NCBI GenBank assembly: GCA_012729725.1
Contig: JAAYCO010000094.1
Span: 557-64,556 of the forward strand
Origin: Planctomycetota bacterium
GTDB taxonomy: Bacteria > Planctomycetota > Phycisphaerae > SM23-33
Length of the DNA stretch: 64,000 nt
Reading direction: 5' to 3'
Shown: in pieces, positions 9,757 through 52,870 of the stretch
How positions within the stretch are numbered: the first letter of the stretch is position 1
Layout: each line of letters begins with the position of its first letter
Made by a program: the position numbers and the translations under genes
Notes under the pieces: model-generated
The model's database searches: none
Told to the model about the DNA's origin: nothing
Seen by the model: the letters and a program-made list of their open reading frames with translations, nothing else

Positions 9757-10314
9757 ATGATGGAATTACTCGGACAATCTTTTTTTGACAATCCCGTTCC
9801 ACTGCTGGCGGCCTTGGGCGTTATCTGGATTGGCCTGCTGGCCGGGTGGTGGGCGAAACGCGACCGCAGGTTGATGATCGGCCTGCTTGTTACGCCTGTC
9901 GTGGGCGCCGCAGCCGTGCTGGCCTCCTGGATGGTGCAAACCCCCGAAGAAGACATAGAACAACGCACCGAGGAACTTGCCGCCATCATCATGCGCAACG
10001 ACTGGCAGAAGGTTCAATCGTATCTTGCCGACGATCTTGACGGCCCATACGGAAATAAAGAGCAAATGCTGCTGCTGGCGAAGACCGTAGTGCGGCGAAT
10101 GAACGTCAGTTCCGCCAAGATCGTCAGCAACAATGTGGAGTTCGTGGAAGACATCGCCGTCTCGCGAGTCAAAGCGAAGATCAGCTACGATGGCGAGCTT
10201 GGCCCGGCGATGTACGTAACCGGCTGGATGGTCTACTGGGCGTGGCGCGACAACGACTGGAAGATCATCTCGGTGAGCCCTGAACAGCCGTTGCCGCGCG
10301 GCGGCTTTCTATAG
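9757..10314 (+). CDS. Hypothetical membrane-anchored protein, possibly an NTF2/SnoaL-like fold
   Basis: An N-terminal TM helix (LLAALGVIWIGLLAGWW...) precedes a soluble domain. Start taken at internal ATG (MMELL). Convergently overlaps the GT4 gene by 50 nt. Confidence 0.4.
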   Translation: MMELLGQSFFDNPVPLLAALGVIWIGLLAGWWAKRDRRLMIGLLVTPVVGAAAVLASWMVQTPEEDIEQRTEELAAIIMRNDWQKVQSYLADDLDGPYGNKEQMLLLAKTVVRRMNVSSAKIVSNNVEFVEDIAVSRVKAKISYDGELGPAMYVTGWMVYWAWRDNDWKIISVSPEQPLPRGGFL

Positions 10315-11458
10315 CGCCGCCATCCTCGCGGCCGGACCTGAACTCGCTCCACTGCCGGGCGAGATATTCCGCCAATCGTCGCCTGCATAAGGCCGAGTCG
10401 AACCGGCAGGCGTTGCGGCGAATCACCCGTTCGTCCGGTCGCGGCAGTTGCTCGAAATGCTCCACCGCCTGGACAATCGCATCGGGAGTGGGGGAATCGA
10501 AGAAAACGCCGGTTTCACGGTCGATTACTATTTCCGCGCTGCCGCCGTGGTTAAGGACAATCGCCGGGCAGCCGCAGGCTTGGGCCTCCACCGTGGTAAT
10601 GCCAAAGTCTTCTGATGCGGCGAAAACAAAGGCCTTGGCCTTGCGCATGTAGTCTCGCAGGGCCTCGCGGGATTGCCACCCCAGGAATTCGATGTTGGGT
10701 CCGGCAAGACGGCGTAATTGCTTCATCTGCCCGCCCTCGCCGATAACAACCAGACGCCTGTGGGGCATCATGCCGAAAGCCCGGACAACTGCATCAACCC
10801 TTTTGTAAGGCGCCAGGCGGGATGCGCACAGGTAGAAGTTCCGGCGCTTCTGGCCGGGGGTGAAATACGCGACGTCCACCGGCGGGTAAACAACCTCGCT
10901 CTGTCGCCTGTACGCCTTGCGGATTCTGCCGGCCACGAATTGAGAATTGGCAATAAAACTGTCAACGCCGTTAGCCGTGCGCGAATCCCACATTCTCAGG
11001 TAGTGAAGCATCGCCCTTGCAAGAAGTCCGCGTGCGCCGTGGTCCAGACCGGACTTCTGCAGGTACTCGTGCTGAAGATCCCAGGCATATCTCATCGGCG
11101 AATGGCATATGCACACATGCAACTGGTTCCCTGATGTAATGACGCCCTTGGCCACCGCGTGCGAGTTGGAGATGACCATGTCATAGCCGGTCATGTCGAA
11201 CTGCTCCACGGCCCAGGGCATGAGCGGCAGATAGCTTCTGAACTTGCGCCTGGCCAGCGGCAGTCGCTGAATGAAGCTGGTGCGAACCACTCTGCCGCCC
11301 AGAAACCCGCGATGGGCATGGGGCATGAAGTCCACGATGGCGAAGACATCAGCCTGCGGCAGGACGCCAAGCACCTCGGCGAGATATCTCTCAGATCCCA
11401 GAGGCGTCTCCAGCCACTCATGTACGACTGCGACCCGCAGATGTTGAAGGTCATTCAT
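10265..11458 (-). CDS. Glycosyltransferase family 4 (GT-B fold)
   Basis: The C-terminal EDFGITTVEAQACGCPAIVLNHGGSAEIVIDRETG is the GT1/GT4 EX7E region. Start taken at internal ATG (MNDLQHLRVAVVHEW). Confidence 0.8.
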   Translation of the reverse strand: MNDLQHLRVAVVHEWLETPLGSERYLAEVLGVLPQADVFAIVDFMPHAHRGFLGGRVVRTSFIQRLPLARRKFRSYLPLMPWAVEQFDMTGYDMVISNSHAVAKGVITSGNQLHVCICHSPMRYAWDLQHEYLQKSGLDHGARGLLARAMLHYLRMWDSRTANGVDSFIANSQFVAGRIRKAYRRQSEVVYPPVDVAYFTPGQKRRNFYLCASRLAPYKRVDAVVRAFGMMPHRRLVVIGEGGQMKQLRRLAGPNIEFLGWQSREALRDYMRKAKAFVFAASEDFGITTVEAQACGCPAIVLNHGGSAEIVIDRETGVFFDSPTPDAIVQAVEHFEQLPRPDERVIRRNACRFDSALCRRRLAEYLARQWSEFRSGREDGGAIESRRAATAVQGSPR

Positions 11459-11534
11459 CGGTCGAATTGTAGCGCCAGGCGTAGTTGATCCACGCCGGAA
11501 CCTGCCGACGCGCAATGCGCCGCTTTCAAGACTG

Positions 11535-11569
11535 TTGACGGCAAGAAGGCTCATGGTAGAATCAGTATC
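11535..11569 (+). promoter_or_regulatory. Sigma70-like promoter, TTGACG-16-(TGg)TAGAAT, upstream of the regulator/Hyf-like operon
   Basis: ttgacggcaagaaggctcatggtagaat is read directly. GAGAGG SD and the ATG follow about 35 nt downstream. Confidence 0.3.
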
Positions 11570-11604
11570 CTTAATTTCCTCTAGTTGGCCACAGAAGAGA
11601 GAGG

Positions 11605-12306
11605 ATGAGAAAAATGAGACTACGTGTCCGAGATGCGGCCCAGTTACTGGACGTTTCGGAAAAGACCGTCTACAGATGGATCAGCCAGAACTCGCTGCCG
11701 GTGCACCGCGTGAACGATCAGTATCGTTTCAATCGGGCCGAGCTGCTGGAGTGGGCCTCTTCTCAGCGAATCGCCGTCTCACCCAAGATGCTGGAAGAGC
11801 CGGAGGATGCGTTTATCCCGTCGCTGGCAGAGGCGATGAGGGCCGGGGGCATTCACTACCGTGTTGACGGCGCCGACAAACCCTCCGCGCTTCGTCACGT
11901 GGTTGAGGTTCTGCCGCTGCCCGAGGGTGTTGACCGCGACTTCTTGTTGCAGGTTCTGCTTGCCAGGGAGTCGGTCGGTTCGACCGCCATCGGAAACGGC
12001 ATAGCAATTCCTCATGTTCGCAATCCTATCACATTGCACGTGGACAAGCCGATGGTTGCCCTTACGTTCCTGGCCAACGGCATAGATTTCCAGGCGATGG
12101 ACGGCAAGCCGGTGAACACGCTGTTCACGATAATCAGCCCGACGATCAAGGCGCACCTCAACTTGTTGTCTAAGCTGGCCTACGGCCTCAAAGGCTCCGC
12201 CTTTGCCGATGCCGTGAAGGCGCAGGATTCGCGCGACGAGCTTTTCCGATGTGCGGCGGACCTGGACCAGCAGATAGCCTCAGCCATGCCGGAAACAGGA
12301 AAGTGA
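11605..12306 (+). CDS. Two-domain regulator: an excisionase/MerR-type HTH fused to a PTS EIIA type-2 (fructose/PtsN-like) domain
   Basis: LLDVSEKTVYRWISQNSLPVHRVNDQYRFNRAELLEW is the HTH. ARESVGSTAIGNGIAIPHVRNP is the EIIA-2 phosphorylatable-His motif. Its stop at 12304-12306 is 1 nt before the next ATG at 12308. Confidence 0.75.
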   Translation: MRKMRLRVRDAAQLLDVSEKTVYRWISQNSLPVHRVNDQYRFNRAELLEWASSQRIAVSPKMLEEPEDAFIPSLAEAMRAGGIHYRVDGADKPSALRHVVEVLPLPEGVDRDFLLQVLLARESVGSTAIGNGIAIPHVRNPITLHVDKPMVALTFLANGIDFQAMDGKPVNTLFTIISPTIKAHLNLLSKLAYGLKGSAFADAVKAQDSRDELFRCAADLDQQIASAMPETGK

Positions 12307-12307
12307 G

Positions 12308-14290
12308 ATGAGTCCCATCCTGTTATCCGCAGCCGTGTGCTTTCTCCTGGCGGGAGCGGTTCTCTGCGCGATGCTCTCTCGCGCGAAGGCCGCCAACGCC
12401 ATCGGCGGCATAGTCGCGGTAGTTGGCGCAGCGGTGGCGATTGCCTCAGCCGTACATGCCTTGCAGACAGGCGATGAGACGCTGCAACTGCCGTGGAGCG
12501 TTCCGTTTGGCAGCTTCCACATTTCCATAGACGGCCTCAGCGCGTTCTTCATTCTTGCGATTTCGGCGGTCTGCGCCTTGGGCGGGGTGTACGGGGTATC
12601 TTACCTGCGGCACTACAAGGGCAAGAATCTTGGCGCGTCGTGGTTCTTCTTCAACCTGCTGTTCGCGTCGATGCTTATGGTGGTTACCGCGTGGAATGCG
12701 GTTCTTTTTCTAGCTGCCTGGGAGGTGATGTCGCTTTCGTCATTCTTCCTTGTGACATTTGAGCACGAGCGCCAGGAGGTTCGCAAAGCCGGCTGGGTTT
12801 ACCTGATATCGGCGCATGTGGGCATGGCGTGTCTTCTGGCGATGTTCATCCTGCTGGGTGGCCAGAATCAGGTTATGGATTTCGATCAACTGGCTCTTCC
12901 TCCGGGCGTCAGTGCCGCCGCCATCTTTCTGCTTGCGGTTGTCGGGTTTGGCGCGAAGGCCGGCATTTGTCCGATGCACGTCTGGTTGCCCGACGCGCAC
13001 CCCGCGGCGCCCTCGCACGTTTCGGCCGTCATGAGCGGCGTGATGATCAAGACCGGCATATACGGCATTCTGAGGACGCTGACGTTTTTGGGATCGCCCG
13101 CATCCTGGCCGGGGTGGTGGGGGTGGACTCTGCTTGTCGCCGGGGCTATCACCGGCGTCGTGGGCATTCTTTTCGCCTTGGCGCAGCACGACATGAAGCG
13201 CGTGCTTGCTTATTCCAGTATCGAGAATGTCGGCGTGATCTGTCTGGGACTCGGCCTGTGGATGATCGGCTCAGCAGGCGGCAACACGATTATCGCCGCA
13301 TTGGGCCTGATAGGGGCGCTTCTGCATGTATGGAACCATGCGATTTTCAAGAGCCTGATGTTCCTTGGCGCCGGGGCTGTTGTCCACGCCACAGGAACTC
13401 GAAACATCGAGCAGCTTGGCGGCCTGCTCAAGCCGATGAAGCACACTGGCGTTGCATTTGCGATTGGCTCCATCGCCATCTGCGGGCTGCCTCCGTTCAA
13501 TGGCTTTGTTGGCGAGTTTCTGATCTACGCATCCGCTTTTGGCGGCATCGTGGGCCTGGGGGGCTCAGCGCCCATAGCCTGCCTGCTGGCGATTGCCGCT
13601 CTGGCTCTGATAGGTGGTTTGGCTGCGGTGTGTTTCACCAGGCTCTTCGGCATTATGTTCCTTGGCGAGCCTCGCAGCGAGGTGGCTCGTCATGCTCACG
13701 AGGCGGGCGTTTCGATGCGGGTAGTGCTTTGGATTCTGGCTGGGGCGTGCGTGCTTGTGGGCCTCGTCGGACCGCTCGTTGCGGGCGTTGCGGCTCTTGC
13801 CGCCGAAGATCTTCTGCCCTCAACCGGCCTTGATATCGGGCCGAGTCTTGGCCTGCTGTGGCGCATCAGCGGCGCCTCGGCTGGGCTAATTGTGTTCGCT
13901 GGGGCGTTCTGGCTGCTGCGGCGACGGCTGCATGCCGGCCGGCCAATTGAAAAAGCCGGAACATGGGATTGCGGTTACGCCGAGCCTACTTCTCGAATGC
14001 AGTACACGGCGTCTTCATTCTCCTGGCCGGTGATCGACATGTTCCGCCATGTATTGCGCCCGACGCTCACTCGTCAGTTGCCATCGGGGCCCTTCCCCGG
14101 CAGGGCGCACCTGACCAGCCGGACGCATGACATCTTCATGCGATTCTTCTACGTGCCGCTGTTCGCCATGGCGCAGCGCCTGGGCCAGAGCTTGCGGTGG
14201 GTTCAACACGGCCGCAACCAGGTGTACGTGCTGTACATCGCAGTCACGCTGCTGGCGCTGCTGCTGTGGAAGCTGGGGACGGAGCAATGA
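12308..14290 (+). CDS. Hydrogenase-4 component B-like / NuoL-MrpA-type antiporter-like membrane subunit, 660 aa
   Basis: About 15 TM helices with the NuoL/HyfB core (WLPDAHPAAPSHVSAVMSGVMIKTGIYG, YSSIENVGVI). Length matches HyfB. Confidence 0.85.
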   Translation: MSPILLSAAVCFLLAGAVLCAMLSRAKAANAIGGIVAVVGAAVAIASAVHALQTGDETLQLPWSVPFGSFHISIDGLSAFFILAISAVCALGGVYGVSYLRHYKGKNLGASWFFFNLLFASMLMVVTAWNAVLFLAAWEVMSLSSFFLVTFEHERQEVRKAGWVYLISAHVGMACLLAMFILLGGQNQVMDFDQLALPPGVSAAAIFLLAVVGFGAKAGICPMHVWLPDAHPAAPSHVSAVMSGVMIKTGIYGILRTLTFLGSPASWPGWWGWTLLVAGAITGVVGILFALAQHDMKRVLAYSSIENVGVICLGLGLWMIGSAGGNTIIAALGLIGALLHVWNHAIFKSLMFLGAGAVVHATGTRNIEQLGGLLKPMKHTGVAFAIGSIAICGLPPFNGFVGEFLIYASAFGGIVGLGGSAPIACLLAIAALALIGGLAAVCFTRLFGIMFLGEPRSEVARHAHEAGVSMRVVLWILAGACVLVGLVGPLVAGVAALAAEDLLPSTGLDIGPSLGLLWRISGASAGLIVFAGAFWLLRRRLHAGRPIEKAGTWDCGYAEPTSRMQYTASSFSWPVIDMFRHVLRPTLTRQLPSGPFPGRAHLTSRTHDIFMRFFYVPLFAMAQRLGQSLRWVQHGRNQVYVLYIAVTLLALLLWKLGTEQ

Positions 14291-15201
14291 TTATCCTGGC
14301 ATCAATAATCCACGTGGTGTTGGCGCTGTCGTTGTCGCCTCTGCTGATCGGCGTGATCAACCGGGTTAAGGCGAAATTTGCCGGCAGGCGGGGCCGGCCT
14401 CTGTTGCAGCTCTATTACGACCTCTGGAAGCTGCTTCACAAGGGCGCGGTCTACAGCACAACGACAACCTGGGTGTTCAGAACAGGCCCGCTGGTTGGCA
14501 TAAGCGCCGTGCTTGTTGCGATAAGTCTTGTTCCGCTTGGAAGAGTGCCTGCGCTGGCTGCCTTTGACGGCGATATCATTCTCCTTGCATACGTTCTGGG
14601 CCTGATGCGTTTCATGACGGTGCTGGCTGCTCTTGACACGGGTTCCGCGTTCGAGGGAATGGGCGCGGGAAGAGAAGTGCAGTTCTCGCTTCTGGCCGAG
14701 CCTGCGCTGCTGCTTGGCGTTGGCGCTCTTTCCATCAGCACCGGAGACTGGAGCCTTTCGGGCATATATGGTTCGCTGTTTGCGGACGGCCTGGCCGCTG
14801 TTGCCCCCACGGCTGTGATGGTCGCCGCAAGCCTGCTGATCATCCTGCTTGCCGAGAACTCGCGCATTCCAGTTGACGATCCAAACACTCACCTTGAACT
14901 GACGATGATTCACGAGGTTATGGTGCTGGACCATGGCGGCGTTGACCTGGCGTTCATTCAGTATGCCGCAGCCCTGAAGCTGTGGGTGTTCTGCGCCCTG
15001 TTCGTCGGCGTTGCTTTGCCTTTGCAGATGCACTGGCCGCTGGTGGATCTTGCCTTCGGTATGGCAGGGGTGTTCATCGTCGCTATGGTCATCGGGGTGA
15101 TCGAGAGCACCATGGCAAGGCTAAGGCTTCTTCGCGTGCCGCAGATGCTCGTTGTCTCGGCGGTGCTGGCGATGATCGCCGTCCTATGGGCGTTGAGGTA
15201 A
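14287..15201 (+). CDS. HyfC/HycD/NuoH-like membrane subunit
   Basis: MIILASIIHVVLALSLSPLLIGVINRVKAKFAGRRGRPLLQLYYDLWKL is a NuoH/HycD-type N-terminus. The ATGA overlap with the upstream stop indicates coupling. Confidence 0.85.
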   Translation: MIILASIIHVVLALSLSPLLIGVINRVKAKFAGRRGRPLLQLYYDLWKLLHKGAVYSTTTTWVFRTGPLVGISAVLVAISLVPLGRVPALAAFDGDIILLAYVLGLMRFMTVLAALDTGSAFEGMGAGREVQFSLLAEPALLLGVGALSISTGDWSLSGIYGSLFADGLAAVAPTAVMVAASLLIILLAENSRIPVDDPNTHLELTMIHEVMVLDHGGVDLAFIQYAAALKLWVFCALFVGVALPLQMHWPLVDLAFGMAGVFIVAMVIGVIESTMARLRLLRVPQMLVVSAVLAMIAVLWALR

Positions 15202-15205
15202 TGCT

Positions 15206-15853
15206 ATGTCGATCCTGACTGACTTGCTGATGATGCTGCTGGTGTTGACGAACCTGCGGATGCTTGCCTCCAGCCGGGTCGCCGTGTGCATTCAGAACGT
15301 GGCGATTCAGGCGGTGGTGCTTGGCGCCATTACGTTCAGCTTGTCGGCGCACGCCGCCATAGCCGCCGGCGTGATAGTCGTGGCGATATCCACAGTGGCT
15401 GTAAAGGGCCTGGTGCTTCCCTGGCTGTTGCGACGGGCGATGAAGGGGGCCGGCATCGGCAGGGAGATCGAGCCGTTTGTTGGCTATGCGTCTTCCGTGC
15501 TGATCGGAGCAGTGCTTCTTGGCCTGTGTTTCGTGATAGCCCGGCCGCTCCGGGACACGTCGCACGCCGGGGCTTCAATGCTGATACCCGTGGCGATGTT
15601 CACCATCCTGACCGGCTTGTTCATCATCATCTCGCGACGCAAGGCGCTTACGCAGGTTCTGGGCTATCTGACGATGGAGAACGGCGTGTGCGTTTTTGGC
15701 GTGTCGCTGGCTGTGGAGGAGCCGTTGCTTGTGGAGATGGGCATCCTGCTGGATGTTCTGGTGGGCGTGTTTGTCATGGGCATTGTGATCCACCAGATCA
15801 ATCGCGAATTCGACCACATAGACACCGACCGACTGTCGGTTCTAAAGGACTGA
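15206..15853 (+). CDS. HyfE-like small membrane subunit, 215 aa
   Basis: Size, all-helical membrane character and position between the HyfC- and HyfF-like genes all fit. Confidence 0.65.
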   Translation: MSILTDLLMMLLVLTNLRMLASSRVAVCIQNVAIQAVVLGAITFSLSAHAAIAAGVIVVAISTVAVKGLVLPWLLRRAMKGAGIGREIEPFVGYASSVLIGAVLLGLCFVIARPLRDTSHAGASMLIPVAMFTILTGLFIIISRRKALTQVLGYLTMENGVCVFGVSLAVEEPLLVEMGILLDVLVGVFVMGIVIHQINREFDHIDTDRLSVLKD

Positions 15854-15857
15854 GCGA

Positions 15858-17318
15858 ATGCTACTTGCCGTCGTGCTGATTCCTGCTGTGGCGGGTCTTG
15901 CGGTGATGGCGCCGTTTGTGAAACGCCTGCGCCTGGCGGTTCTGCTGCTTGCAGCGGTTGGTCACGCATCAGCCGTCGCATGGATATGCAGCAGGCCGCT
16001 TGCCGACAACAACGCGGATGCGTGGATCGCCCTGGACGCGCCGGGCCGCCTCTTCCTGGCTATCACAAGCATCCTGTTTCTGGCGGCGGCGACATATGCG
16101 ATAGGCTATCTCCGAAACGAGGAAAACCGCACCACCAAGGACGCCGAGGAAGGCTTCCTCTTTCGCAACGAGCCCATGAACATTTTCATCGGCTGCCTGC
16201 TGCTGTTCCTGGCGACGATGAGCCTGGTGTGCATCAGCCAGCACCTGGGGCTTCTATGGGTGGCCGTCGAAGCCACCACGCTGGTAAGCGCGCCGCTCAT
16301 CAGCTTTCACCGTCACCATCGCAGCCTTGAGGCAACGTGGAAGTATCTGCTGATATGCTCCGTGGGCATTGCGTTGGCGCTGCTGGGCATTTTCTTCATC
16401 GCGGCGGCCGGGCAAGGCGTTGTTCATGGCATGAACATACACGCCTTGACGAAAGCCGCCGGCAAGATGGACCCCGTGTGGCTCAAGGCGGCGTTCATAT
16501 TGCTGATTGTCGGATACGGCACGAAAATGGGCCTTGCGCCCATGCACAACTGGCTGCCGGACGCTCACAGCGAATCGCCTTCGCTTGTCTCGGCGTTGCT
16601 TTCGGGCGCTCTGCTCAACTGCGCTTTTCTGGGCCTGCTTCGCGGCCAGATGGTTATGTCCGCGGCGGGGCTTGGCGAGTTCAGCGGCGGGTTGCTTGTG
16701 CTGCTGGGCCTTCTGTCCATGATCGTCGCGGCGGTGTTCATGATCCGCCAGAGCGATTACAAGCGGCTTTTAGCGTATTCCAGCGTTGAACACATGGGCA
16801 TTCTTGCAATTGGAGCCGGACTTGGCGGATTGGCTGCCACAGGCGCCATGCTTCACGCGGTGAATCATTCCTTCACCAAGGGGATGCTGTTTCTGGTTGC
16901 GGGAAATCTGCTGGCGGCCCATCGCACAAAGAATATTCATGAAGTGCGCGGCGTGCTGACAACCCTGCCAATTACAGGCTGCCTTTGGGTAGGCGGCTTT
17001 CTGGCTATCACGGGGGCTCCGCCGTTTGGCATGTTCATCAGTGAATTGACCATCCTGAAGGGCGCCTTGCAGGGCGGGCACATTGTGGTGGGTGTTGTTT
17101 ATCTCGCAGCTTTGGCTGTCATTTTCATATCCATGGCCCGGTTGATGCCGCCGATGGCGTTTGGAATTCCGGCGGCCCAGATCAAGACCAAAGAGCCGCT
17201 CTGGGCGGTTGCGCCTCCGTTGGCGCTTGGGTTGGTTGTGCTGACCATGGGACTGTACGTGCCGGAATCGCTGTGGAACGCCCTTCGAGCCGCGGCCGGC
17301 GCAATTGGAGCAAACTGA
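15858..17318 (+). CDS. HyfF/NuoN-like antiporter-like membrane subunit
   Basis: The NuoM/N family core is present: WLPDAHSESPSLVSALLSGALLN and YSSVEHMGILAIG. Confidence 0.85.
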   Translation: MLLAVVLIPAVAGLAVMAPFVKRLRLAVLLLAAVGHASAVAWICSRPLADNNADAWIALDAPGRLFLAITSILFLAAATYAIGYLRNEENRTTKDAEEGFLFRNEPMNIFIGCLLLFLATMSLVCISQHLGLLWVAVEATTLVSAPLISFHRHHRSLEATWKYLLICSVGIALALLGIFFIAAAGQGVVHGMNIHALTKAAGKMDPVWLKAAFILLIVGYGTKMGLAPMHNWLPDAHSESPSLVSALLSGALLNCAFLGLLRGQMVMSAAGLGEFSGGLLVLLGLLSMIVAAVFMIRQSDYKRLLAYSSVEHMGILAIGAGLGGLAATGAMLHAVNHSFTKGMLFLVAGNLLAAHRTKNIHEVRGVLTTLPITGCLWVGGFLAITGAPPFGMFISELTILKGALQGGHIVVGVVYLAALAVIFISMARLMPPMAFGIPAAQIKTKEPLWAVAPPLALGLVVLTMGLYVPESLWNALRAAAGAIGAN

Positions 17319-17319
17319 G

Positions 17320-18798
17320 ATGTCCGCTGAGCATCCGGCAATTATCCGAAACGCGCAGGTGGCCGATCTTGAGGCATGTCCGTGCATGTCGGCGGGAGAC
17401 TTTCGCCAGACTCTATGCGCCCGCGTGTCGGCAGGGGCAAGGCTTTCGGCGCTGTTCGCCCGGCGAAAGGCGGGGGAATCCGGCGGCAGGCTATATGCCG
17501 TGCTGGCAATGCCGGGCTCGAACAACCTGGGCCTGCTTTGCTGCGACGTGGGCGATTCATACCCTTCAATAACCGGCGATTGTCCCGCGGCTCATTGGTT
17601 CGAGCGCGAAATCGCCGAGCGTGCGGGAATTCGCCCTGAAGGCCACCCGTGGCTCAAACCTGTTCGCTTTGCTGGCAAAGATGTTGGATTGACCGACTTC
17701 TACCGCATGGACGGCAATGAAGTGCATGAAGTCGCAGTCGGCCCGGTTCACGCCGGCGTTATAGAGCCCGGCCACTTCAGGTTCCAATGTCATGGCGAAA
17801 CCGTGCACCATCTTGAGATATCGCTTGGCTACCAGCATCGCGGCATAGAAGATGCATTAATCGGCGGCCCTGACGCCAGAACGATTCATTACATAGAGCC
17901 CCTTGCCGGCGACACCACCATCGGACATGCCACTGCGTACGCAATGGCGATCGAGGCGTTGGGCGGCTCGAGGCCTTCGGCGCGGGCGCACGCCATTCGC
18001 GCCATCGCCGCCGAGTTGGAACGTCTTGCGAACCACATCGGCGACCTGGGCGCGCTTGCGGGAGATGTGGGCTTCCTTCCGACCATGAGTTACTGCGGCA
18101 GGATTCGCGGCGACGTGTTGAACTGCACGGGCGTCTTGTGCGGCAACCGCTTCGGCAGACGCCTGGTTGTGCCGGGCGGAATTATGCACGATCTTGACGA
18201 GCGGTTGTGCAAGGATCTGCTGGATCGGCTTGAAAGCATAGAGCGGGATGCAACCGATGCGATCGAACTGATGTTCAACGCGCCATCGGTCCTGGCCAGG
18301 TTCGAAGGCGCCGGCACGGTCAGCCATGAGCTGGCGAACCAACTGGGCCTCGTCGGCGTCGCGGCCCGAGCAAGCGACATCGAGTACGACGTGAGACGCG
18401 AATTCCCCTACGGCATCTACCAGTTCACGCAGATGCCGATATGCACGTGGTCCACCGGCGACTGTTTCGCAAGGGCGTATGTGCGGTGGCTCGAGGCGAA
18501 ACAATCGTTCGCCTTTGTGCGAGAGCACCTGCGGTCGCTGCCGGCGGGCGCGACGCGCCAAGGCGTTGGCGAACTTGCCGCGGGCAAGATTGTCGTCGCG
18601 CTGGTTGAAGGCTGGCGCGGCGAGATATGCCACGTCGTCGGGACCGACCAGAGCGGGAGGTTTGCGTTCTATAAGATCGTAGATCCTTCGTTCCATAACT
18701 GGTTCGGGCTGGCCATGGCATTACGAGAGCAGCAGATCTCTGACTTCCCGTTGTGCAACAAGAGTTTCAATTTGTCCTACTGCGGCCACGACTTGTAG
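17320..18798 (+). CDS. HyfG/HycE-like NuoC-NuoD fusion. It is a group-4 hydrogenase large-subunit homologue lacking all four [NiFe]-ligating cysteines.
   Basis: The NuoC part carries AHWFEREIAERAGIRPEGHPWLKP. The NuoD/large-subunit part carries GPVHAGVIEPGHFRFQCHGETV and IGYQHRGIE. Where the N-terminal RxCGxCxxxH should be, the sequence reads PLAGDTTIGHATAY. The C-terminal DPCxxC position reads VDPSFHNW. Track start 17305 is a TTG inside the upstream gene; the ATG at 17320 has a GGAG SD. Confidence 0.85.
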   Translation: MSAEHPAIIRNAQVADLEACPCMSAGDFRQTLCARVSAGARLSALFARRKAGESGGRLYAVLAMPGSNNLGLLCCDVGDSYPSITGDCPAAHWFEREIAERAGIRPEGHPWLKPVRFAGKDVGLTDFYRMDGNEVHEVAVGPVHAGVIEPGHFRFQCHGETVHHLEISLGYQHRGIEDALIGGPDARTIHYIEPLAGDTTIGHATAYAMAIEALGGSRPSARAHAIRAIAAELERLANHIGDLGALAGDVGFLPTMSYCGRIRGDVLNCTGVLCGNRFGRRLVVPGGIMHDLDERLCKDLLDRLESIERDATDAIELMFNAPSVLARFEGAGTVSHELANQLGLVGVAARASDIEYDVRREFPYGIYQFTQMPICTWSTGDCFARAYVRWLEAKQSFAFVREHLRSLPAGATRQGVGELAAGKIVVALVEGWRGEICHVVGTDQSGRFAFYKIVDPSFHNWFGLAMALREQQISDFPLCNKSFNLSYCGHDL

Positions 18799-18801
18799 GA
18801 C

Positions 18802-19575
18802 ATGGAGATTTGGATGTTGGGCATACTCAAATCGCGTTTGAGGCAGAAGCATCGGACGATGCTGTACCCCAAAGGCCCCGCGCCGCAACTGCCAGAGAGG
18901 TTTGTGGGCCGGCCCACAGTCGCCGCCAATAAATGTGGCGATTGCAATGTGTGTGCGGCTGCCTGTCCGGTGGGGGCTATTACAAAAGGCCCCGATGGTT
19001 GTCCCAGGATCGATACGGGCAAATGCCTGTTCTGCGGCGCATGCGAACGATCATGCGAAGGCGGGATCATTAAATTCACGTCGGAATACCGACTGGCGGC
19101 GGCCTCGCGCGACGACCTGGTTGTCGGCCCCGACTCGCCGCGGTACATGCCGGCAAGAAATGATCTGGCGGCCAGGCTGTTTGGCAAGTCGCTGAAACTG
19201 CGTCAGGTCTCGGCGGGCGGCTGCAACGCGTGCGAGGCCGATTCCAACGTCTTGTGCACGCTTGCATGGGACCTGGGCAGATTCGGCATAGACTTCGTTG
19301 CCTCCCCCCGGCACGCCGACGGCCTGCTGATAACGGGCCCGGTTACGAGGAACATGGCGCTTGCCCTTCGCAAAACGTACGACGCCGTGCCGCAGCCGAG
19401 GATTGTGATCGCGGTCGGATCATGCGCAATTAGCGGCGGTCCGTTTGCGGGCCTTAAAGAGCAAAACAATGGAGCGGCAGGGATATTGCCCGTGGATCTT
19501 TTCATCCCCGGATGTCCGCCGCACCCGCTGACGATTCTTGACGGCCTGCTGCGTTTCCTCGGCAGGGTGGAGTGA
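18802..19575 (+). CDS. Fusion of a compact 2x[4Fe-4S] ferredoxin (HyfH/NuoI-like) with a hydrogenase-type small subunit (HyfI/HycG/NuoB-like)
   Basis: CGDCNVCAAACP and CLFCGACERSCEGG are the two ferredoxin motifs. GGCNACEAD (CxxCE), VGSCAISGGPF and IPGCPPHP are the small-subunit proximal-cluster ligands. Confidence 0.8.
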   Translation: MEIWMLGILKSRLRQKHRTMLYPKGPAPQLPERFVGRPTVAANKCGDCNVCAAACPVGAITKGPDGCPRIDTGKCLFCGACERSCEGGIIKFTSEYRLAAASRDDLVVGPDSPRYMPARNDLAARLFGKSLKLRQVSAGGCNACEADSNVLCTLAWDLGRFGIDFVASPRHADGLLITGPVTRNMALALRKTYDAVPQPRIVIAVGSCAISGGPFAGLKEQNNGAAGILPVDLFIPGCPPHPLTILDGLLRFLGRVE

Positions 19576-19578
19576 CGC

Positions 19579-21519
19579 TCAGGGCAGGTTCTCTATGGAA
19601 AGAGGCTCGATTTCGTCGGCGGGAATGAACCCGAATATCCTGCTGAAGAAGAACAGTTCCGCCTCCAACGCTCGCAGAATATTCTGCGCCCGCCTGAAGC
19701 CGTGCTGTTCGCCTTCAAACGGCATATAGGCGGTGGGCACACCCTTCTTGCGAAGCGCGTCGAACATCATCTGAGCCTGATTCGGCGGCACTATCGGATC
19801 CTCAAGGCCCTGGAAGAATATCACCGGACGCTTGAGGTTCTCCACATGATGAATGGGCGAACGCTTGTGATACAGGTCGCGTCTCTGGGGGTATGGGCCG
19901 ATAAGCCTTTCGAGGTAATGAGACTCGAATTTGTGCGTCTCCCTGGCCAGAATCTCGCAATCGCTGACGCCGAAATGGCTTGACCCTGCCGCGAAAACGT
20001 CGCGGAATGTCATTGCCGCCAGCACCGTGTACCCGCCGGCGCTGCCGCCGGTGATGGCCAGGCGATTGCGGTCCACTTTGCCGGCTTGTGCAAGATGAAG
20101 CGCGCCGGCGCAGACATCATCAACGTCGGCTTCGCCCCAGACGGTGTTGAGGCTCTGACGATAGGCCCTGCCGTAACCGCTGCTGCCGCGGTAGTTGACA
20201 TCCAGCACGGCGAATCCTCGGCTGGTGTAATACTGTATGTCCAACCGAAGCGCCGCTGACGCCGACGAGGTTGGGCCGCCATGCACCTTCACGATCAGCG
20301 GAGGCAACTCGTCGTCGCCGCCCTTGTAGTTGGCGTTCAGCGGCGGGTAGAACAGACCATGAGCCCGTGCGCCGCCGGCGGTGTCGAATGTTATCGGCTC
20401 GGGCGGCGAAAGGTAGTTGTCGTCCCATTCCAGGTGTGTCGCCTGTCGCAGCACTTCAATATTCCTGTTGCGCAGGTTCATCTTCACTATCGAGCTTGGC
20501 TCGCGCGAAGAAGCGCCGATGAAGTAGCCGAATGCCCCGCCTACTCGAACATCGGATATTGCCGTATACGGCGTCTGAATGTCGGAAAGATCGCCTGTCG
20601 GCACGTCCAGTTCCGCCAGGCGCCAGATGCCGTCCTTGCTGTACGCGCAGAGGATGAACAGCGGATTGACAAAGTCGTAGCACGACTGTCCCAGCCGCCA
20701 AAGAGGATAGCCAAACTCGCCTTCGATCTTTGTCAACGCCTCGACCTTGCCGTCGCGCAGGCAGTGGATGTTCCACCAGCCGTTCCATCGGTCGCTGACG
20801 AAATGCAGCACGTGGTCGCCGCTCCAGCGTGGTTGAAGCACTGCTTCTCCCTCACCGCCGGCGACCTTCGCCTGCTTACCGACGCCGCCGTCTCTGAGCA
20901 GTTCGGCCGTCCATAGCTCGGCCGCGTCCCAGGGCATGTCCGGGTGGTTCCACGTAAGGTAGGCAAGCATTTTGCCGTCGGCGGAGATTCTGGGCGCTGC
21001 GTAAAAATCGTTGCCCGAAACCAGGATGTCGCCCACGCCGCCATTGAGCGTGCTTACCGAGACAATGCTGTTGAGGGGCTCGGGGCCGCCGTGGTCCTCG
21101 CGGATGCAGATGACTCGCCCCATGTAGGGGTCGAACACGCCATCGGCGTACCTCGTGCTGTCCTGTGGCGTTAAGGCTGACGCCTCGCCGATGTCCTGGG
21201 CGTGGTACAACCTCTGGTCGTCGTAGTTGCTGAACACGGCGCCGCCGTAGACGACTGCATATGAGCCGCCGCCGTATTCATGAACCCTTGTGCGGGCGTT
21301 AAGCGGCGGGGGGTTGACCTCGCGTCGCGAGCCGTCGGGCGTTCGGCGGATCACGACGTATCTGCCGCCTTCGAGAGGGCGCAACTCATTCCAGTACACA
21401 TCGGGTCCGTCAACGTGAATCTCTCCCAGGCCAAGCATCGACGATGAGATCAACTCGGCAGTAATAGGCGACTGCCATGTTCCGTACTTCGCCACAAGCT
21501 TGTCCTGACGGGCGGTCAT
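19579..21519 (-). CDS. S9 family serine peptidase (prolyl oligopeptidase/acylaminoacyl peptidase type) with an N-terminal beta-propeller
   Basis: GGSAGGY is the GxSxGG nucleophile elbow. C-terminal Asp/His regions and a WD/TolB-like propeller are present. Start taken at MTARQDKL, which gives an ATGA overlap with the upstream gene. Confidence 0.85.
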   Translation of the reverse strand: MTARQDKLVAKYGTWQSPITAELISSSMLGLGEIHVDGPDVYWNELRPLEGGRYVVIRRTPDGSRREVNPPPLNARTRVHEYGGGSYAVVYGGAVFSNYDDQRLYHAQDIGEASALTPQDSTRYADGVFDPYMGRVICIREDHGGPEPLNSIVSVSTLNGGVGDILVSGNDFYAAPRISADGKMLAYLTWNHPDMPWDAAELWTAELLRDGGVGKQAKVAGGEGEAVLQPRWSGDHVLHFVSDRWNGWWNIHCLRDGKVEALTKIEGEFGYPLWRLGQSCYDFVNPLFILCAYSKDGIWRLAELDVPTGDLSDIQTPYTAISDVRVGGAFGYFIGASSREPSSIVKMNLRNRNIEVLRQATHLEWDDNYLSPPEPITFDTAGGARAHGLFYPPLNANYKGGDDELPPLIVKVHGGPTSSASAALRLDIQYYTSRGFAVLDVNYRGSSGYGRAYRQSLNTVWGEADVDDVCAGALHLAQAGKVDRNRLAITGGSAGGYTVLAAMTFRDVFAAGSSHFGVSDCEILARETHKFESHYLERLIGPYPQRRDLYHKRSPIHHVENLKRPVIFFQGLEDPIVPPNQAQMMFDALRKKGVPTAYMPFEGEQHGFRRAQNILRALEAELFFFSRIFGFIPADEIEPLSIENLP

Positions 21520-22580
21520 GAATGCTCCTTTTGCTCCACCAACGACGAGAGCACCTGGGCCATCGAAAAGCGAGCGCCGCACACAAGGCTGTCGGATGCC
21601 CCGTAGTAGATCGTTATCTGGTCGCCGTTGACCACGTGGCCGTTGCTGAAGACCACGTTGGCGAAAAACCCGTTTCGTTCATACTCCATGATAGGTTCCA
21701 TGATGGGCTGACGGCTTCTGGCGATGACGCGAGCGGGATTCTCGATGTCCAGCAGCATTGCCCCAAGGCAGTAGCGGTGGTCAAAATCGGCTCCATGGTA
21801 GATAAGAAGCCAGCCCTTGTCGGTAAGGATGGGCGCCGCCCCCGCGCCAATTCGTTCCTCATCCCACATTCCGGGGCGGGTGCGGGCGACGCACTGATGA
21901 CGGCCCCAGTTTTGCAGGTCATCAGATGTTGAGAGCCAGATATATGGTCCGCCAACCTCAACACCCATAGGCCGGTGAAGCAGGGCATAGCGGCCGGCGA
22001 TTTTCCGCTCGAATAACGCTGCGTCCTTGTTGTGCGGCGGCAGGATCATGCCCAGCCGAGTGAAGGACTTCCAGTCCTGCGTGGTCATGAGCGCCACTCC
22101 AGCGCCGAAGCGAGACACGGCTGTGTATGTCAGGCAAAAAGTCTCATCGAGCCGGGCAACCCGGCAGTCTTCCACTCCAAACTCCTCCATCGGGCCTTCG
22201 CCGATGATGGCGGGCAAGTCATCCACGTCGAACCGTACGCCGTCGTTACTCCACGCAAGGCGAAGATGTGAAAGGGAGGTGAGATACTTCTCGCCGCGAT
22301 AACTGAAGATTCTTGGATCGCTAGCTATCAAGTCCCGGTCGTTCAGGTGGAATTCGAGCATTCTCACGCCCGCCGGGGCGGACGGGTCGCTTATCGCCGT
22401 CCGCAGGAAACCCTCAGCCTGAATCGGCTGCTGGGCCACTCGCAATAGCAGGGCGGTTCTGCCTTTGTAGACAAATGCGCCCGGGTTCATGACCCCGATG
22501 ACCCTCAGGTCGCTCCTGCTGGGCCTTACGCCGGCTGGGGTTATGATCGGGTTCTCATCAAATCTCTGCGCTATGTCCAT
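21516..22580 (-). CDS. GH130 family glycosidase/phosphorylase (DUF377 beta-propeller)
   Basis: NPGAF, WSNDGVRF, YHGA and IYYGASDSLVCGA are typical of GH130 five-bladed propellers. Start set at internal ATG MDIAQRFDENPIITP; the longer track ORF has a non-homologous leader. Confidence 0.7.
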   Translation of the reverse strand: MDIAQRFDENPIITPAGVRPSRSDLRVIGVMNPGAFVYKGRTALLLRVAQQPIQAEGFLRTAISDPSAPAGVRMLEFHLNDRDLIASDPRIFSYRGEKYLTSLSHLRLAWSNDGVRFDVDDLPAIIGEGPMEEFGVEDCRVARLDETFCLTYTAVSRFGAGVALMTTQDWKSFTRLGMILPPHNKDAALFERKIAGRYALLHRPMGVEVGGPYIWLSTSDDLQNWGRHQCVARTRPGMWDEERIGAGAAPILTDKGWLLIYHGADFDHRYCLGAMLLDIENPARVIARSRQPIMEPIMEYERNGFFANVVFSNGHVVNGDQITIYYGASDSLVCGARFSMAQVLSSLVEQKEHS

Positions 22581-22623
22581 CTGCCTAGAATTGTACGGAG
22601 GAATGTTTGTAAGGAGTAGGATC

Positions 22624-23748
22624 ATGGCAGTACTAATCAAAGAATCTCCCATCAGGCGTATACAGCTGTTTGGGCAGGACATCTGGTTGGACTTCATCGA
22701 CAGGGGACTGATTCGTAGCGGCTCGCTTGCCAGGCTGATCGAGGAAGACGGCATTTCCGGCGTAACTTCGAACCCGACCATCTTTGAGCAGTCGTTCTCC
22801 GGCGGCGAATACGACGACGACATACACGAAATGGCCGGCCAGGGACTCGGCGCCGAGGACATATACAAGCGCATAACCTCGGCCGAGATAAGATCCGCCG
22901 CTGACGTGTTCATGCCGCTGTTCGAATCAAGCAGGGGGAGGCGGGGGTTTGTCAGCCTCGAAGTATCGCCTCACCTGGCATATGATCCCGTCCGAACCGT
23001 TCAAGAGGCGCGCGAGCTGCGGGATCTGGTGGATCGGCCGAACTTGCTGGTCAAGATTCCCGCAACCATGGAGGGTCTGGCGGCAATTCGCCAGTGCATC
23101 AGCGAGGGCATCAGCATTAACGTGACGTTGCTGTTTGGCCTGTCAAGATACATGCACGTCGCACAGGCGTACATCGAGGGCCTTGAGGAACGGACGGGCA
23201 GGAACGAGTCGCCAGTTGGAGTTACCTCCGTCGCCAGCTTCTTCCTGAGCCGCATTGACGCGATGGTTGACCCGATGCTTGACCGCATCTCGCTTGGCGG
23301 ACCAGGAAGCGAACAGGCCAAGACGCTCTTCGGGCAGGTTGCAAGCTGCTGCGCGAAGATTGCATACCAGATGCAGCAGGAGATATTCGCAAGCCCGAAG
23401 TTTCACGATCTTGCGGCCAAGGGCGCGACGCCTCAGCGGTTGCTATGGGCGTCGACGGGCACGAAGAACCCGATGTTCAGCGACATCAAGTACGTCGAAT
23501 CGCTGATCGGTCTGGACACGATAAACACCATGCCGATGGCGACGCTCAAGGCCTACCAGGACCACGGCGAGCCGGAATCGCGGCTGGACATGAACCCGGA
23601 CAGGCCGGTGAGGCTGCTATCGCATCTTGATGATCTTGGCATAAAGCTTGACGAGATTGCCGACGCGCTTGAGCTTGAAGGCGTCGAAAAGTTCAAGAAG
23701 CCTTACGATGCTTCATTGGATCGCATTCGGCAGCGCGGTGCGAAGTAA
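22624..23748 (+). CDS. tal: Transaldolase (long ~370-aa type)
   Basis: GISGVTSNPTIFEQ and VTSVASFFLSRIDAMVD carry the Schiff-base lysine region of the transaldolase family. AAGGAG SD precedes the ATG at 22624. Confidence 0.85.
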   Translation: MAVLIKESPIRRIQLFGQDIWLDFIDRGLIRSGSLARLIEEDGISGVTSNPTIFEQSFSGGEYDDDIHEMAGQGLGAEDIYKRITSAEIRSAADVFMPLFESSRGRRGFVSLEVSPHLAYDPVRTVQEARELRDLVDRPNLLVKIPATMEGLAAIRQCISEGISINVTLLFGLSRYMHVAQAYIEGLEERTGRNESPVGVTSVASFFLSRIDAMVDPMLDRISLGGPGSEQAKTLFGQVASCCAKIAYQMQQEIFASPKFHDLAAKGATPQRLLWASTGTKNPMFSDIKYVESLIGLDTINTMPMATLKAYQDHGEPESRLDMNPDRPVRLLSHLDDLGIKLDEIADALELEGVEKFKKPYDASLDRIRQRGAK

Positions 23749-36973: not shown

Positions 36974-37068
36974 GCTTTCGCCCTTGTATCCGTCCCTAGA
37001 CGTGTTGAGAGCGTGCAGTTCATAACAAGCGATGCTTTTTGAATCATGTCTTCAGCAAGGAGAAAAGG

Positions 37069-37827
37069 ATGAATCGTAAGGTGAGTCTTTTGATGGTGAT
37101 GTGTGCTGTTGTCGCATGTTCAGCGATTGTGCAGGCCGAAGTTGTCAGTTTCTGGAGTTTCGAATCGATCGAAGGAGGAACAGTAATCAATGACCAGGTT
37201 GGCGGGGTGCATCTGACGCTCAGCGGTGGTGGTTATGGTTCAAGCATTGTTGGGGGGGGCCAACAGGCATTCGGCGATGGTGCTCTGAAATCCGGTGCGG
37301 GCTATTGTGCGACTGGTAACGCCAGTTCCTATTCACTTGATGCCGGCACGCTCATCTTCTGGATAAAGGATCAGAGTCACCTTCAGTACCAGCGTGTCAT
37401 GGCAACACATGTAAGGGGTTCAGCCGTGATGGACATCCAATGGAATCCTGACGGCCAATTGTATGTTCAGGGTATTCCTGGCCAGGGATCGATCAGCGGG
37501 TCTGCCGATTCGGCTATCGCCGATGGCGAGTGGCACAAGGTTGCCCTCACATACAGCAAGGCCGAGAACAAGACCCGGTTCTACGTGGATGACAAACTGG
37601 TCGGCCAGGGCGTATATGTGGGCGCCACCACCAACACAGGCTTCATTCATCTGGGCGGCTCGGGAAGCTACAGCACCAACGCAGGATGCTACCTGGATAA
37701 CGCATCCGTCTTTGACACCGCGCTTACGCAGGAAGAAATAACAAACTATGTTCCTGAACCAGCGTCGCTGACTCTACTGGCAGCGTGCGGGCTGATTGCG
37801 ACGGCTCGTCGCCAGCGCCAGAAGTAA
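37069..37827 (+). CDS. Secreted LamG/concanavalin-like domain protein with a C-terminal PEP-CTERM sorting signal
   Basis: MNRKVSLLMVMCAVVACSAIVQA is the signal peptide. EWHKVALTYS...TRFYVDDKLVGQ is the LamG-like jelly-roll. The C-terminus VPEPASLTLLAACGLIATARRQRQK is PEP, then a TM helix, then an Arg cluster. Confidence 0.7.
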   Translation: MNRKVSLLMVMCAVVACSAIVQAEVVSFWSFESIEGGTVINDQVGGVHLTLSGGGYGSSIVGGGQQAFGDGALKSGAGYCATGNASSYSLDAGTLIFWIKDQSHLQYQRVMATHVRGSAVMDIQWNPDGQLYVQGIPGQGSISGSADSAIADGEWHKVALTYSKAENKTRFYVDDKLVGQGVYVGATTNTGFIHLGGSGSYSTNAGCYLDNASVFDTALTQEEITNYVPEPASLTLLAACGLIATARRQRQK

Positions 37828-37920
37828 AAGAGTCTACACTGTTGAGTTTCATTGCAGGCATTCCGCAAACCCTGGGAGGCGCAAGTCTCCCAGGGTTGAG
37901 GGGCCGATGAGGATCAGGTT

Positions 37921-38649
37921 ATGTTCCAACGCGCCAGAGTTATCAAGCAGCCGCGACGGGATGCTGAAAGGGCAGGCCGAATCACCGGCAAGCATGGTTT
38001 CACGCTGATTGAGCTGCTTGTAGTAATCGCGATCATATCACTGCTGGTGTCGATGCTCATGCCTGCGTTGAAAAAGGCAAGAGAGCTTGCGTGGGCAACC
38101 GTCTGCGCAGGCAATCACAAAACCGTCGGCCTGGCGATATCCTTCTACGCCGAAGACCATAAACGATCCACACCAATTGGGTATGCTCCTGAAGTCGAGG
38201 CCAATTATCGCTGGCCGAATCTGCTTGCACAGCACCAGGGGCTAATCGACGAATTGTGGAAACTGCCGCGAATCTCACATCCGTTTGACTGCCCGGCAGT
38301 TGACACGACAGACAAGTACACCGAATTCACGATGAACACCGCGTTTGCCTCTCGAAACCGCAAAAAAGCAACCGTGCTGGACAACATTGTCTCGCCGGAG
38401 AATCTGCTTGCGCTATATGAAAGCGTGCCGGACTCGGCTAACCGTTACTGCGCGACCGTGCATTGGGCTTTTCCTCCCGTCGCATTCGACGGCGCCAACT
38501 ATGCGGAGGTTCGGCTGGCCCATGCGGGAATCGCCAACTTCCTTCTGGCCGATCTGCATGTGGAGCAGATTTCAGATGAATCAAGATACATGAACATTAA
38601 CTGGGTCTGGGAAGGGTTCTGGGAATTCTGGAATGCTCCAGGTGAATAG
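37921..38649 (+). CDS. DUF1559 protein: a type IV pilin-like N-terminal cleavage/methylation segment plus a C-terminal H-X9-D(G) domain
   Basis: [25 protein letters not shown] is a prepilin N-terminus. [20 protein letters not shown] matches the HxGGxNxxFxDGSV motif. Confidence 0.75.
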
Positions 38650-38748
38650 TGGGGGCCTGTCAAAGCGACTTTGTGACAAGCCGTTGAAGAGCAAGTCGAG
38701 AGTCTTTTGATCCATGAAGTGCCGCAGTCAGAAAAAAGGCAGCGTCAA

Positions 38749-48679: not shown

Positions 48680-48773
48680 AATGCCCGTGGACCTCCATAG
48701 GTTCAGGTGCGAGTTGCAAAGCTTCAATTTGCTGGTTATTATACAACTATCGACGTTTGGCCGAAGGATCCAA

Positions 48774-49637: not shown

Positions 49638-49694
49638 GCTGCGCAATGCCGGCGCCCATACTGATTTACGAAGAAACCCCTATAATTGTTGATA

Positions 49695-51605: not shown

Positions 51606-51613
51606 GCGGCGCG

Positions 51614-52732: not shown

Positions 52733-52870
52733 GTTTTCTCCGATGTGTACGGAAGTAAGATACTCTTTTCTGGTTACGAATTTCAACGCATCCAATAACT
52801 CCAGTATAACTTGGCCCCTAGAAGAAGGAATGCGCGTGCATTGGAATATCATGTATGATAATAACATGAG

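Follow-up and report, generated by a model that had tools for sequence, protein, structure and literature searches.

A winged-helix protein with a PtsN-type EIIA domain heads Ehr gene cassettes in many bacterial phyla and is a probable regulator of them

We examined a 64,000-nucleotide stretch of DNA from a Planctomycetota bacterium (Phycisphaerae; SM23-33; GenBank assembly GCA_012729725.1, contig JAAYCO010000094.1, positions 557 to 64,556), called the window below and numbered from its first base. Our subject is the first gene of a seven-gene operon, which encodes a predicted DNA-binding protein with a phosphotransferase system (PTS) EIIA domain and stands directly before six genes for the subunits of an Ehr-type complex. 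We call its product, a putative transcription factor, the regulator. A mechanical open reading frame (ORF) call gave 233 codons starting from an ATG at 11605 (11605 to 12306, plus strand, as are all features below unless noted). The most likely product is 230 residues long (11614 to 12306), because a Shine-Dalgarno-like GAGAGG (11599 to 11604, read from the sequence) lies 9 nt 5' of the ATG at 11614, which encodes a start Met conserved across more than 80 homologues. The gene ends with a TGA at 12304 to 12306, and one base separates this stop codon from the HyfB-like ATG at 12308, as the initial annotation of the locus had stated. A copy of the protein with 100% identity (P0001) is present on two Joint Genome Institute (JGI) metagenome contigs. 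Database entries for the homologues carry the label "PTS sugar transporter subunit IIA," which is misleading.

The N-terminal part of the regulator (11620 to 11769) is an Xis/BldC-type winged-helix DNA-binding domain. Pfam assigned residues 6 to 55 to HTH_17 (PF12728; E = 7.6e-15, 55.4 bits against a cutoff of 27), the NCBIfam "excise" model TIGR01764 scored 46.6 against a cutoff of 28.8, and the domain has the Xis/BldC-type winged-helix fold, with the excisionases RdfS, Xis, and AlpA as its top structural matches. The NCBIfam MAD1 model gave a subthreshold match (47.4 against 80). The domain had initially been described as an excisionase/MerR-like helix-turn-helix (HTH). The excisionase half of that description holds, given the TIGR01764 match and the Xis/BldC/RdfS fold, and the MerR half is imprecise. 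The MerR model PF00376 reached 17.9 against a threshold of 28.2, and the MerR hallmarks are absent: in the AlphaFold2 (AF2) secondary structure, the winged helix leads through a short linker into the EIIA domain instead of into a long C-terminal coiled-coil helix, and the promoter spacer is 16 nt in the window and about 17 nt in relatives instead of the 19 to 20 bp typical of MerR.

The C-terminal part (11851 to 12249) is a PtsN-type EIIA domain (PTS_EIIA_2) with the type-2 fold of the PF00359 superfamily; PF00359 matched residues 83 to 215 at an E value of 1.8e-23 and 83.5 bits (threshold 27). With both Pfam domains far above their thresholds, the fusion of an HTH to a type-2 EIIA domain was borne out, and the assignment to the Ntr type agrees with the closest solved structures, which are PtsN proteins (PDB 1A6J, 3URR, 4GQX, and 2A0J) and not sugar EIIAs. 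The PtsN equivalog models TIGR01419 and NF008145 matched below their cutoffs (61.1 against 138.7 and 60.4 against 221, respectively), and the regulator, at 230 residues with an N-terminal HTH_17 domain, differs from a single-domain PtsN of about 150 to 160 residues. The phosphorylatable His that had been read from the motif GSTAIGNGIAIPHVR is present in the EIIA domain. This predicted phospho-acceptor, His134 in the 230-residue numbering (codon 12013 to 12015), aligns with His73 of Escherichia coli PtsN, and a second active-site His, His181 (12154 to 12156), aligns with PtsN His120. Both are invariant in an alignment of 192 nonredundant homologues, in which the STxIGxGIAIPHVRNP loop around His134 is almost invariant, and no loss of the His or of the EIIA fold was seen. 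Arg118, which also aligns with the PtsN active site, is invariant in a 65-sequence alignment (A1). In distant members with 30 to 38% identity, the phospho-acceptor His is still invariant, and the second His varies in a few distant paralogues.

The six Ehr genes that follow are densely packed, with junctions that overlap or leave gaps of 1 to 4 nt. They encode a HyfB/NuoL-like antiporter-type subunit (12308 to 14290; Proton_antipo_M, 1e-48; NF005086, 3.7e-185), a NuoH/HyfC-like subunit whose start overlaps the preceding stop as ATGA (14287 to 15201; NADHdh, 6.9e-30; gene call in locus L087), a HyfE-like membrane subunit (15206 to 15853; NF008556, 5.9e-28), a HyfF/NuoN-like antiporter-type subunit (15858 to 17318; Proton_antipo_M, 4.1e-53), a NuoC-NuoD/HyfG-like large subunit of the EhrL type (17320 to 18798; Complex1_49kDa, 5.2e-39, with translation and start codon), and a fusion of a NuoI-like 2x[4Fe-4S] protein to a NuoB/HyfI-like subunit (18802 to 19575; Oxidored_q6, 6.3e-26, and Fer4; alternative start ATG at 18814). 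NiFe hydrogenases carry CGICxxxH at the first CxxC position of the large subunit. The large subunit encoded here has LAGDTTIGH at the N-terminal CxxC position and a C terminus reading NLSYCGHDL, and because these replace the NiFe cysteines, its sequence predicts that it cannot hold a NiFe site. The Fe-S cysteines are retained in the small-subunit and ferredoxin-like parts. A group 4 hydrogenase/complex I subunit set with a large subunit lacking the NiFe-ligating CxxC pairs corresponds to the Ehr-type complexes defined in the literature (PMC6349859, PMC10284858, and PMC7894505), so the description of the operon as Ehr-like stands.

The linkage of the regulator to the Ehr genes extends far beyond the window. 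Searched against 5.8 billion proteins, the regulator had thousands of relatives. Every full-length protein among the best 120 has both domains, at 64 to 82% identity, and those among the 120 with names come from Planctomycetes and Desulfobacterota metagenome-assembled genomes (MAGs). Four contexts found by exact protein match have the regulator followed by the same six genes, with different flanking genes. When one genome per species was scanned, 305 relatives emerged, and the best 80 of these, at 54 to 79% identity, belonged to Planctomycetota, Desulfobacterota, Verrucomicrobiota, Latescibacterota, Spirochaetota, Binatia, Eisenbacteria, Methylomirabilota, Lentisphaeria, Myxococcota, Zixibacteria, Acidobacteriota, and Krumholzibacteriia. 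When we compared the window's seven proteins with 84 genome loci from about 13 phylum-level groups by tblastn, the Ehr genes lay directly 3' of the regulator wherever the contig continued, with one extra antiporter-like gene in a few loci. The regulator also stood directly before Ehr genes in 53 of the 61 metagenome loci with at least 600 nt of downstream sequence. Of 82 loci, 32 have a 4-nt overlap between its stop codon and the next start, and in 59 the two lie within 5 nt of each other. In 57 complete cassettes, the regulator had a median identity to the window protein of 58.6%, and its minimum of 54% exceeds that of each of the six Ehr genes. In one locus (L062, 4730 to 14808), the same regulator (60% identity) stands at the head of a divergent Ehr type, in which the subunits are 36 to 40% identical to those of the window, an extra HyfF-like antiporter subunit is encoded, and the NiFe cysteines are likewise missing. 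These results show that the coupling of the regulator to Ehr is real and ancient. The seven genes appear to move between phyla as one unit by horizontal transfer, because the window cassette resembles its counterparts in Desulfatiglans and Syntrophales (regulator identity about 70%) more than those in most other Planctomycetota (55 to 60%).

A few loci depart from the common arrangement. Tandem duplicate HTH-EIIA genes precede the Ehr genes in L018 (9147 to 10705) and L067 (2036 to 3548), and both copies retain the HTH and the phospho-acceptor His. In L109 (8947 to 11089), a truncated HyfG-like fragment and HyfHI come directly after the regulator, and the membrane subunits are missing. The operons of L109, L144, and L107 look decayed or rearranged and could also be assembly artifacts.

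A sigma70-like promoter, TTGACG-16-TAGAAT, had been proposed upstream of the regulator gene, and it is present. A pattern scan placed the -35 box TTGACG at 11535 to 11540, 79 nt upstream of the conserved ATG, and the -10 box TAGAAT, with a TG just 5' and a 16-nt spacer, at 11557 to 11562, where it aligns with TAGAAT or TATGAT in L085, L005, and L006, the loci most closely related to the window. The boxes agree with the consensus at 10 of 12 positions. The pattern alone is not significant, since 9 kb contained two such sites against 2.8 expected from shuffles. TTGACA occurs at -76 to -80 from the ATG in 29 of 81 homologous loci, and the promoter call is supported because the -35 and -10 boxes of the window lie at the position typical of the family.

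We surveyed the 200 nt 5' of the conserved ATG in 81 distinct loci for shared cis elements. Of 82 upstream regions, 65 contain the hexamer TGGACA/TGTCCA, a number that reached at most 20 in shuffles, and the tandem TGTCCA-N4-TGTCCA (at most two mismatches, coding strand) was found in 57 of 81 regions against 12 of 1,640 shuffles (0.7%). Relative to the ATG, the usual position of the tandem is -50 to -46. The shared layout consists of TTGACA about 77 nt before the ATG and a -10-like hexamer whose last T is the first base of TGTCCA-N4-TGTCCA; TTGACA most often precedes the first repeat by 28 nt, giving the spacer of about 17 nt seen in relatives. Promoters such as those of L055 or L005 carry the canonical operator, TGTCCAaagaTGTCCA. 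A position weight matrix (PWM) applied at 12 bits or more matched the promoter in 57 of 84 loci. In the 2.7 Mb of strand searched, 15 matches fell elsewhere than in the plus-strand upstream zone; of these, 10 were the inverted tandem at about -80 and 5 were unrelated. The tandem element is found in 11 of 13 named phylum-level groups, within otherwise unalignable sequence. An upstream inverted tandem, TTGACA-N4-TGGACA, spans the -35 box in 22 of 81 regions (14 of 1,620 shuffles), and Verrucomicrobia have an additional TGGACA near the ribosome-binding site.

The TGTCCA repeat is best explained as the putative target of the factor encoded in the same cassette, because, as the cassette passes from phylum to phylum, the site remains paired with a single promoter. 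A direct repeat with a 10-bp period is compatible with the BldC/Xis fold, and BldC, the closest structurally characterized transcription factor, binds direct repeats head to tail (PMC5859096). The position of the repeat over the transcription start, and often over the -35 box, suggests repression. We rejected two other identities for the element. An RNA element in the leader did not fit, since an Rfam search of 11300 to 12400 gave nothing above noise, and we prefer a DNA operator because the inverted tandem lies upstream of the transcript, in untranscribed DNA. PhoB and ArcA boxes are direct repeats with a TGTC core, and the present element has a period of 10 bp and not 11, is placed 3' of the -10 box, and accompanies a cassette that is transferred horizontally.

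Our reading of the locus is that the regulator and the six Ehr subunits form a self-contained seven-gene cassette with a dedicated autoregulator, probably a repressor, that is gated by HPr/NPr phosphorylation; we put the probability of this reading at roughly 0.6. The Xis/BldC-type winged helix would bind the 10-bp-spaced TGTCCA direct repeats from the last base of the -10 box across the transcription start and, at many loci, also the second, oppositely oriented pair that includes the -35 box. Binding would most likely repress the operon and, with it, the regulator's own synthesis. The PtsN-type EIIA domain would be the input, with the invariant His134 phosphorylated by an HPr/NPr-type carrier of the regulatory PTS. 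The phosphorylation state may then alter oligomerization or DNA binding, and synthesis of the ion-translocating Ehr complex would thereby follow carbon, nitrogen, or ion status. The parts of this reading differ in strength. The protein is very probably the cassette's DNA-binding regulator, phosphorylation is somewhat favored as the signal that it receives, and we consider the odds that it represses the operon to be about even. The initial annotation had suggested that the expression or activity of the membrane complex is tied to a PTS or PtsN-like phosphorylation state. The linkage across about 13 phylum-level groups speaks for a coupling of the protein to the complex, the promoter repeat speaks for control of expression, and the phosphotransfer itself we infer.

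Several observations weigh against this reading. No gene for EI, HPr, NPr, or HPr kinase was found in the 64-kb window, which says little about the whole genome. This search combined tblastn with E. coli and Bacillus subtilis HPr, NPr, and PtsN as queries and regular expressions for HPr and phosphoenolpyruvate (PEP)-utilizing enzymes, and it matched the regulator alone; Pfam annotation of about 55 window ORFs also gave no PTS gene. PTS genes are usually unlinked. An HPr-family gene adjoins the regulator in only 1 of the 84 genome loci (L076) and in none of 85 further loci. In L076, this gene lies directly 5' of the regulator on the same strand and scores 67.5 bits with TIGR01003 against a cutoff of 47.9. 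The canonical HPr motif includes Arg17 and Ser46, and the L076 protein keeps the His and lacks both of these residues. On the side of the cis element, the Zixibacteria and Myxococcota loci have no tandem repeat, and the window has no canonical operator, its best PWM score being -3.3 bits. Finally, the very high conservation of the regulator and its tight translational coupling would also fit a protein that contacts the complex itself.

A few loci offer hints of a PTS connection. In L140, a PtsN-like ORF directly follows the operon. In L076 (2606 to 6082), the HPr-family gene beside the regulator is itself such a hint, and genes for a histidine kinase and a sigma54-type response regulator precede it on the same strand as the regulator. 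The duplicated regulators of L018 and L067 may be counted among these hints.

At the operator position, the window and the two identical metagenome contigs read TAGAATcagTATCCttaaTTTCC. In alignment A2, relatives whose protein is 77 to 81% identical have TAGAAT and, within a few bases, TGTCC-N5-TGTCC-like repeats, and the corresponding window sequence, TATCC-ttaa-TTTCC (11566 to 11579), is a degenerate remnant that has neither of the two G's (96% conserved in the matrix) and a spacer shortened by 1 nt. A TGGCCA at 11586 to 11591, one mismatch from the inverted half-site TGGACA that sits between operator and ATG in many relatives, was read from the sequence and is weak as a single 6-mer. The window's regulator protein keeps every invariant residue. 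With the two best-conserved operator bases gone, autoregulation in this organism may be weakened, changed, or absent. Scanned with the operator matrix, the window yields a single site of at least 12 bits, AAAAGATCCACAAATGTCAACATA (62132 to 62155, plus strand), which falls within an amidohydrolase ORF and probably matches by chance.

The alternative that survives best, which we nevertheless consider unlikely, is that the protein acts mainly, or in addition, on the complex itself, its PtsN-type domain docking on membrane or peripheral Ehr subunits and gating ion translocation or electron transfer, with the winged helix autoregulating or serving as a tether. It draws on the analogy of unphosphorylated PtsN, which binds TrkA, KdpD, and YcgO; PtsN is reported to bind the K+/H+ antiporter YcgO directly and to inhibit it (PMC11808508 and a 2026 YcgO preprint). 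EIIA-fold domains are also the cytoplasmic regulatory domains of SLC4 ion exchangers. Within our own data, the regulator is as conserved as the redox subunits, its gene often overlaps the first structural gene by 4 nt, and distant paralogues adjoin ion transporters and EIIA-CBS proteins and not Ehr genes. A pure subunit, however, would have no need of the DNA-binding domain and matching cis element that are conserved across phyla, and a first-gene autoregulator is a common operon design that explains the coupling equally well.

Slightly less probable again is an operon-specific transcription factor whose EIIA-like domain is not phosphorylated and provides dimerization only or binds a small ligand or partner. 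The lack of a PTS phosphocarrier gene in the window and at most loci and the PtsN equivalog score of 61.1 against 138.7 are consistent with this idea, as is the reuse of the EIIA fold without phosphotransfer in eukaryotic SLC4 proteins. Such a factor does not readily account for the active site: Arg118, the GSTxIGxGIAIPH loop, His134, and His181 show little or no variation among hundreds of sequences from many phyla, and the persistence of the phospho-acceptor His even in paralogues of 30 to 38% identity is hard to explain without catalysis. That the protein is an excisionase, a recombination directionality factor, or a phage defense HTH of the MADS MAD1 type that merely lies beside Ehr genes is highly improbable, for although its N-terminal domain resembles RdfS, Xis, and AlpA most closely, exceeds the "excise" threshold with a subthreshold MAD1 score, and has a transposase upstream in one locus (L001), the protein is linked to Ehr in every genome locus examined with no integrase in the inspected gene tables, is fused to a PtsN domain, falls below the MAD1 cutoff, and has its repeats on a sigma70-type promoter and not at an attachment site.

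A phosphorylation-gated autoregulator of the cassette, the reading that we prefer, can also be set within a wider HTH-EIIA family, which at 50% clustering comprises 354 clusters with E values of 1e-30 or better. A metagenome scan seeded with a five-sequence subgroup alignment recovered a distant HTH-EIIA subgroup that is 38 to 41% identical to the window protein and has no adjoining Ehr genes. Members of this subgroup (L092, 650 to 4397; L093, 525 to 3483; L090; and L091) precede a protein with an EIIA domain and two CBS domains and a CitMHS/ArsB/NhaB-type transporter, with a CLC chloride channel upstream on the opposite strand and, in L090 and L091, a further EIIA-like ORF. Published PtsN targets include the Kdp potassium system. 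Because of this genomic context and the published PtsN targets YcgO and Kdp, we suggest a family-wide link of HTH-EIIA proteins to ion-translocating membrane proteins. A bolder proposal, which we regard as speculative and rather doubtful, is that HTH-EIIA(Ntr) proteins are a widespread and hitherto unrecognized class of PTS-linked regulators of ion-translocating machinery that would repress through TGTCCA repeats and, depending on phosphorylation, be released from DNA to dock on Ehr and gate ion pumping, much as PtsN gates YcgO and TrkA and as some PTS regulators are sequestered at the membrane. If such a dual role were true, Ehr would be an ion homeostasis device under PTS-Ntr control and not a conventional respiratory enzyme.

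The regulator shares with PtsN the GIAIPH phospho-His loop, the Arg, and the second His, and the regulation of ion transport systems by PtsN resembles the context of the regulator. Unlike PtsN, it has a fused DNA-binding domain, heads an Ehr operon instead of lying beside rpoN, and falls below the equivalog cutoffs. PtsN exerts its effects by contacting other proteins and is not known as a DNA-binding protein. In Firmicutes, the MtlR/LicR/ManR class comprises transcription factors that contain an EIIA domain of the mannitol/fructose class (PF00359) and whose activity PTS phosphorylation controls. These proteins differ from the regulator in being large, in needing PRD and EIIB-like domains, in their type of HTH, and in their sugar utilization targets, whereas the regulator serves a respiratory-type complex; Pfam found no PRD match in the regulator at E values up to 0.01. 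BldC binds its direct repeats head to tail, as the 10-bp-period tandem repeat at the promoters of the regulator family would allow, but it is a 68-residue single domain without a sensor, unlike the regulator, which has a PtsN-type sensor and serves one operon. The excisionases Xis, RdfS, and AlpA act in recombination, unlike the role proposed here. Known Ehr complexes, such as that of Geobacter sulfurreducens (GSU0739 to GSU0745), have the same subunit set and lack the NiFe cysteines (PMC7894505, PMC6349859, and PMC10284858), and the Ehr literature that we examined mentions no linked regulator. Our literature search found no description of the regulator gene, of an HTH_17 and PTS_EIIA_2 fusion, or of the linkage to Ehr. 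Both domains, and PTS-controlled transcription factors in general, are already known; the domain fusion and the Ehr linkage were not found described.

The regulator is thus probably a switch devoted to the enigmatic Ehr complex and not described before. Since it travels with Ehr across phyla and has a recognizable input in the PtsN-type site and a recognizable output in the promoter repeat, it offers a direct experimental handle and a concrete way into the function of Ehr complexes. It would extend the known targets of the regulatory PTS, hitherto ion transporters and sugar operons, to include a respiratory-type complex, and it would add a minimal architecture, an Xis/BldC-type winged helix plus EIIA, to the PTS-controlled transcription factors.

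The operon is bordered at its 3' end by a convergent S9 peptidase gene and at its 5' end by a glycosyltransferase gene on the opposite strand. The mechanical GT4 glycosyltransferase ORF (10265 to 11554, minus strand) and a metagenome gene call both start at an ATG at 11554, inside the regulator promoter, and a typical GT4 N terminus, MNDLQHLRVAVVHEWL, starts at an ATG at 11458. The real intergenic region is therefore probably 11459 to 11613, as judged from these start codons. A similar case occurs farther downstream (21516 to 23748), where a minus-strand ORF for a GH130 mannoside phosphorylase has a 115-residue N-terminal stretch that has no family match and overlaps the 5' end of a plus-strand transaldolase ORF; the GH130 gene probably starts internally. 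Two other regions of the window (37039 to 40353 and 46721 to 53665) encode a PEP-CTERM/LamG protein, a protein with a prepilin-type N-methylation motif, a CBM4_9 protein, a GH127 beta-L-arabinofuranosidase, two AraC-type regulators, and a multi-PAS histidine kinase. This content is of a polysaccharide-degrading kind and agrees with the origin of the closest regulator relatives from Planctomycetota MAGs.

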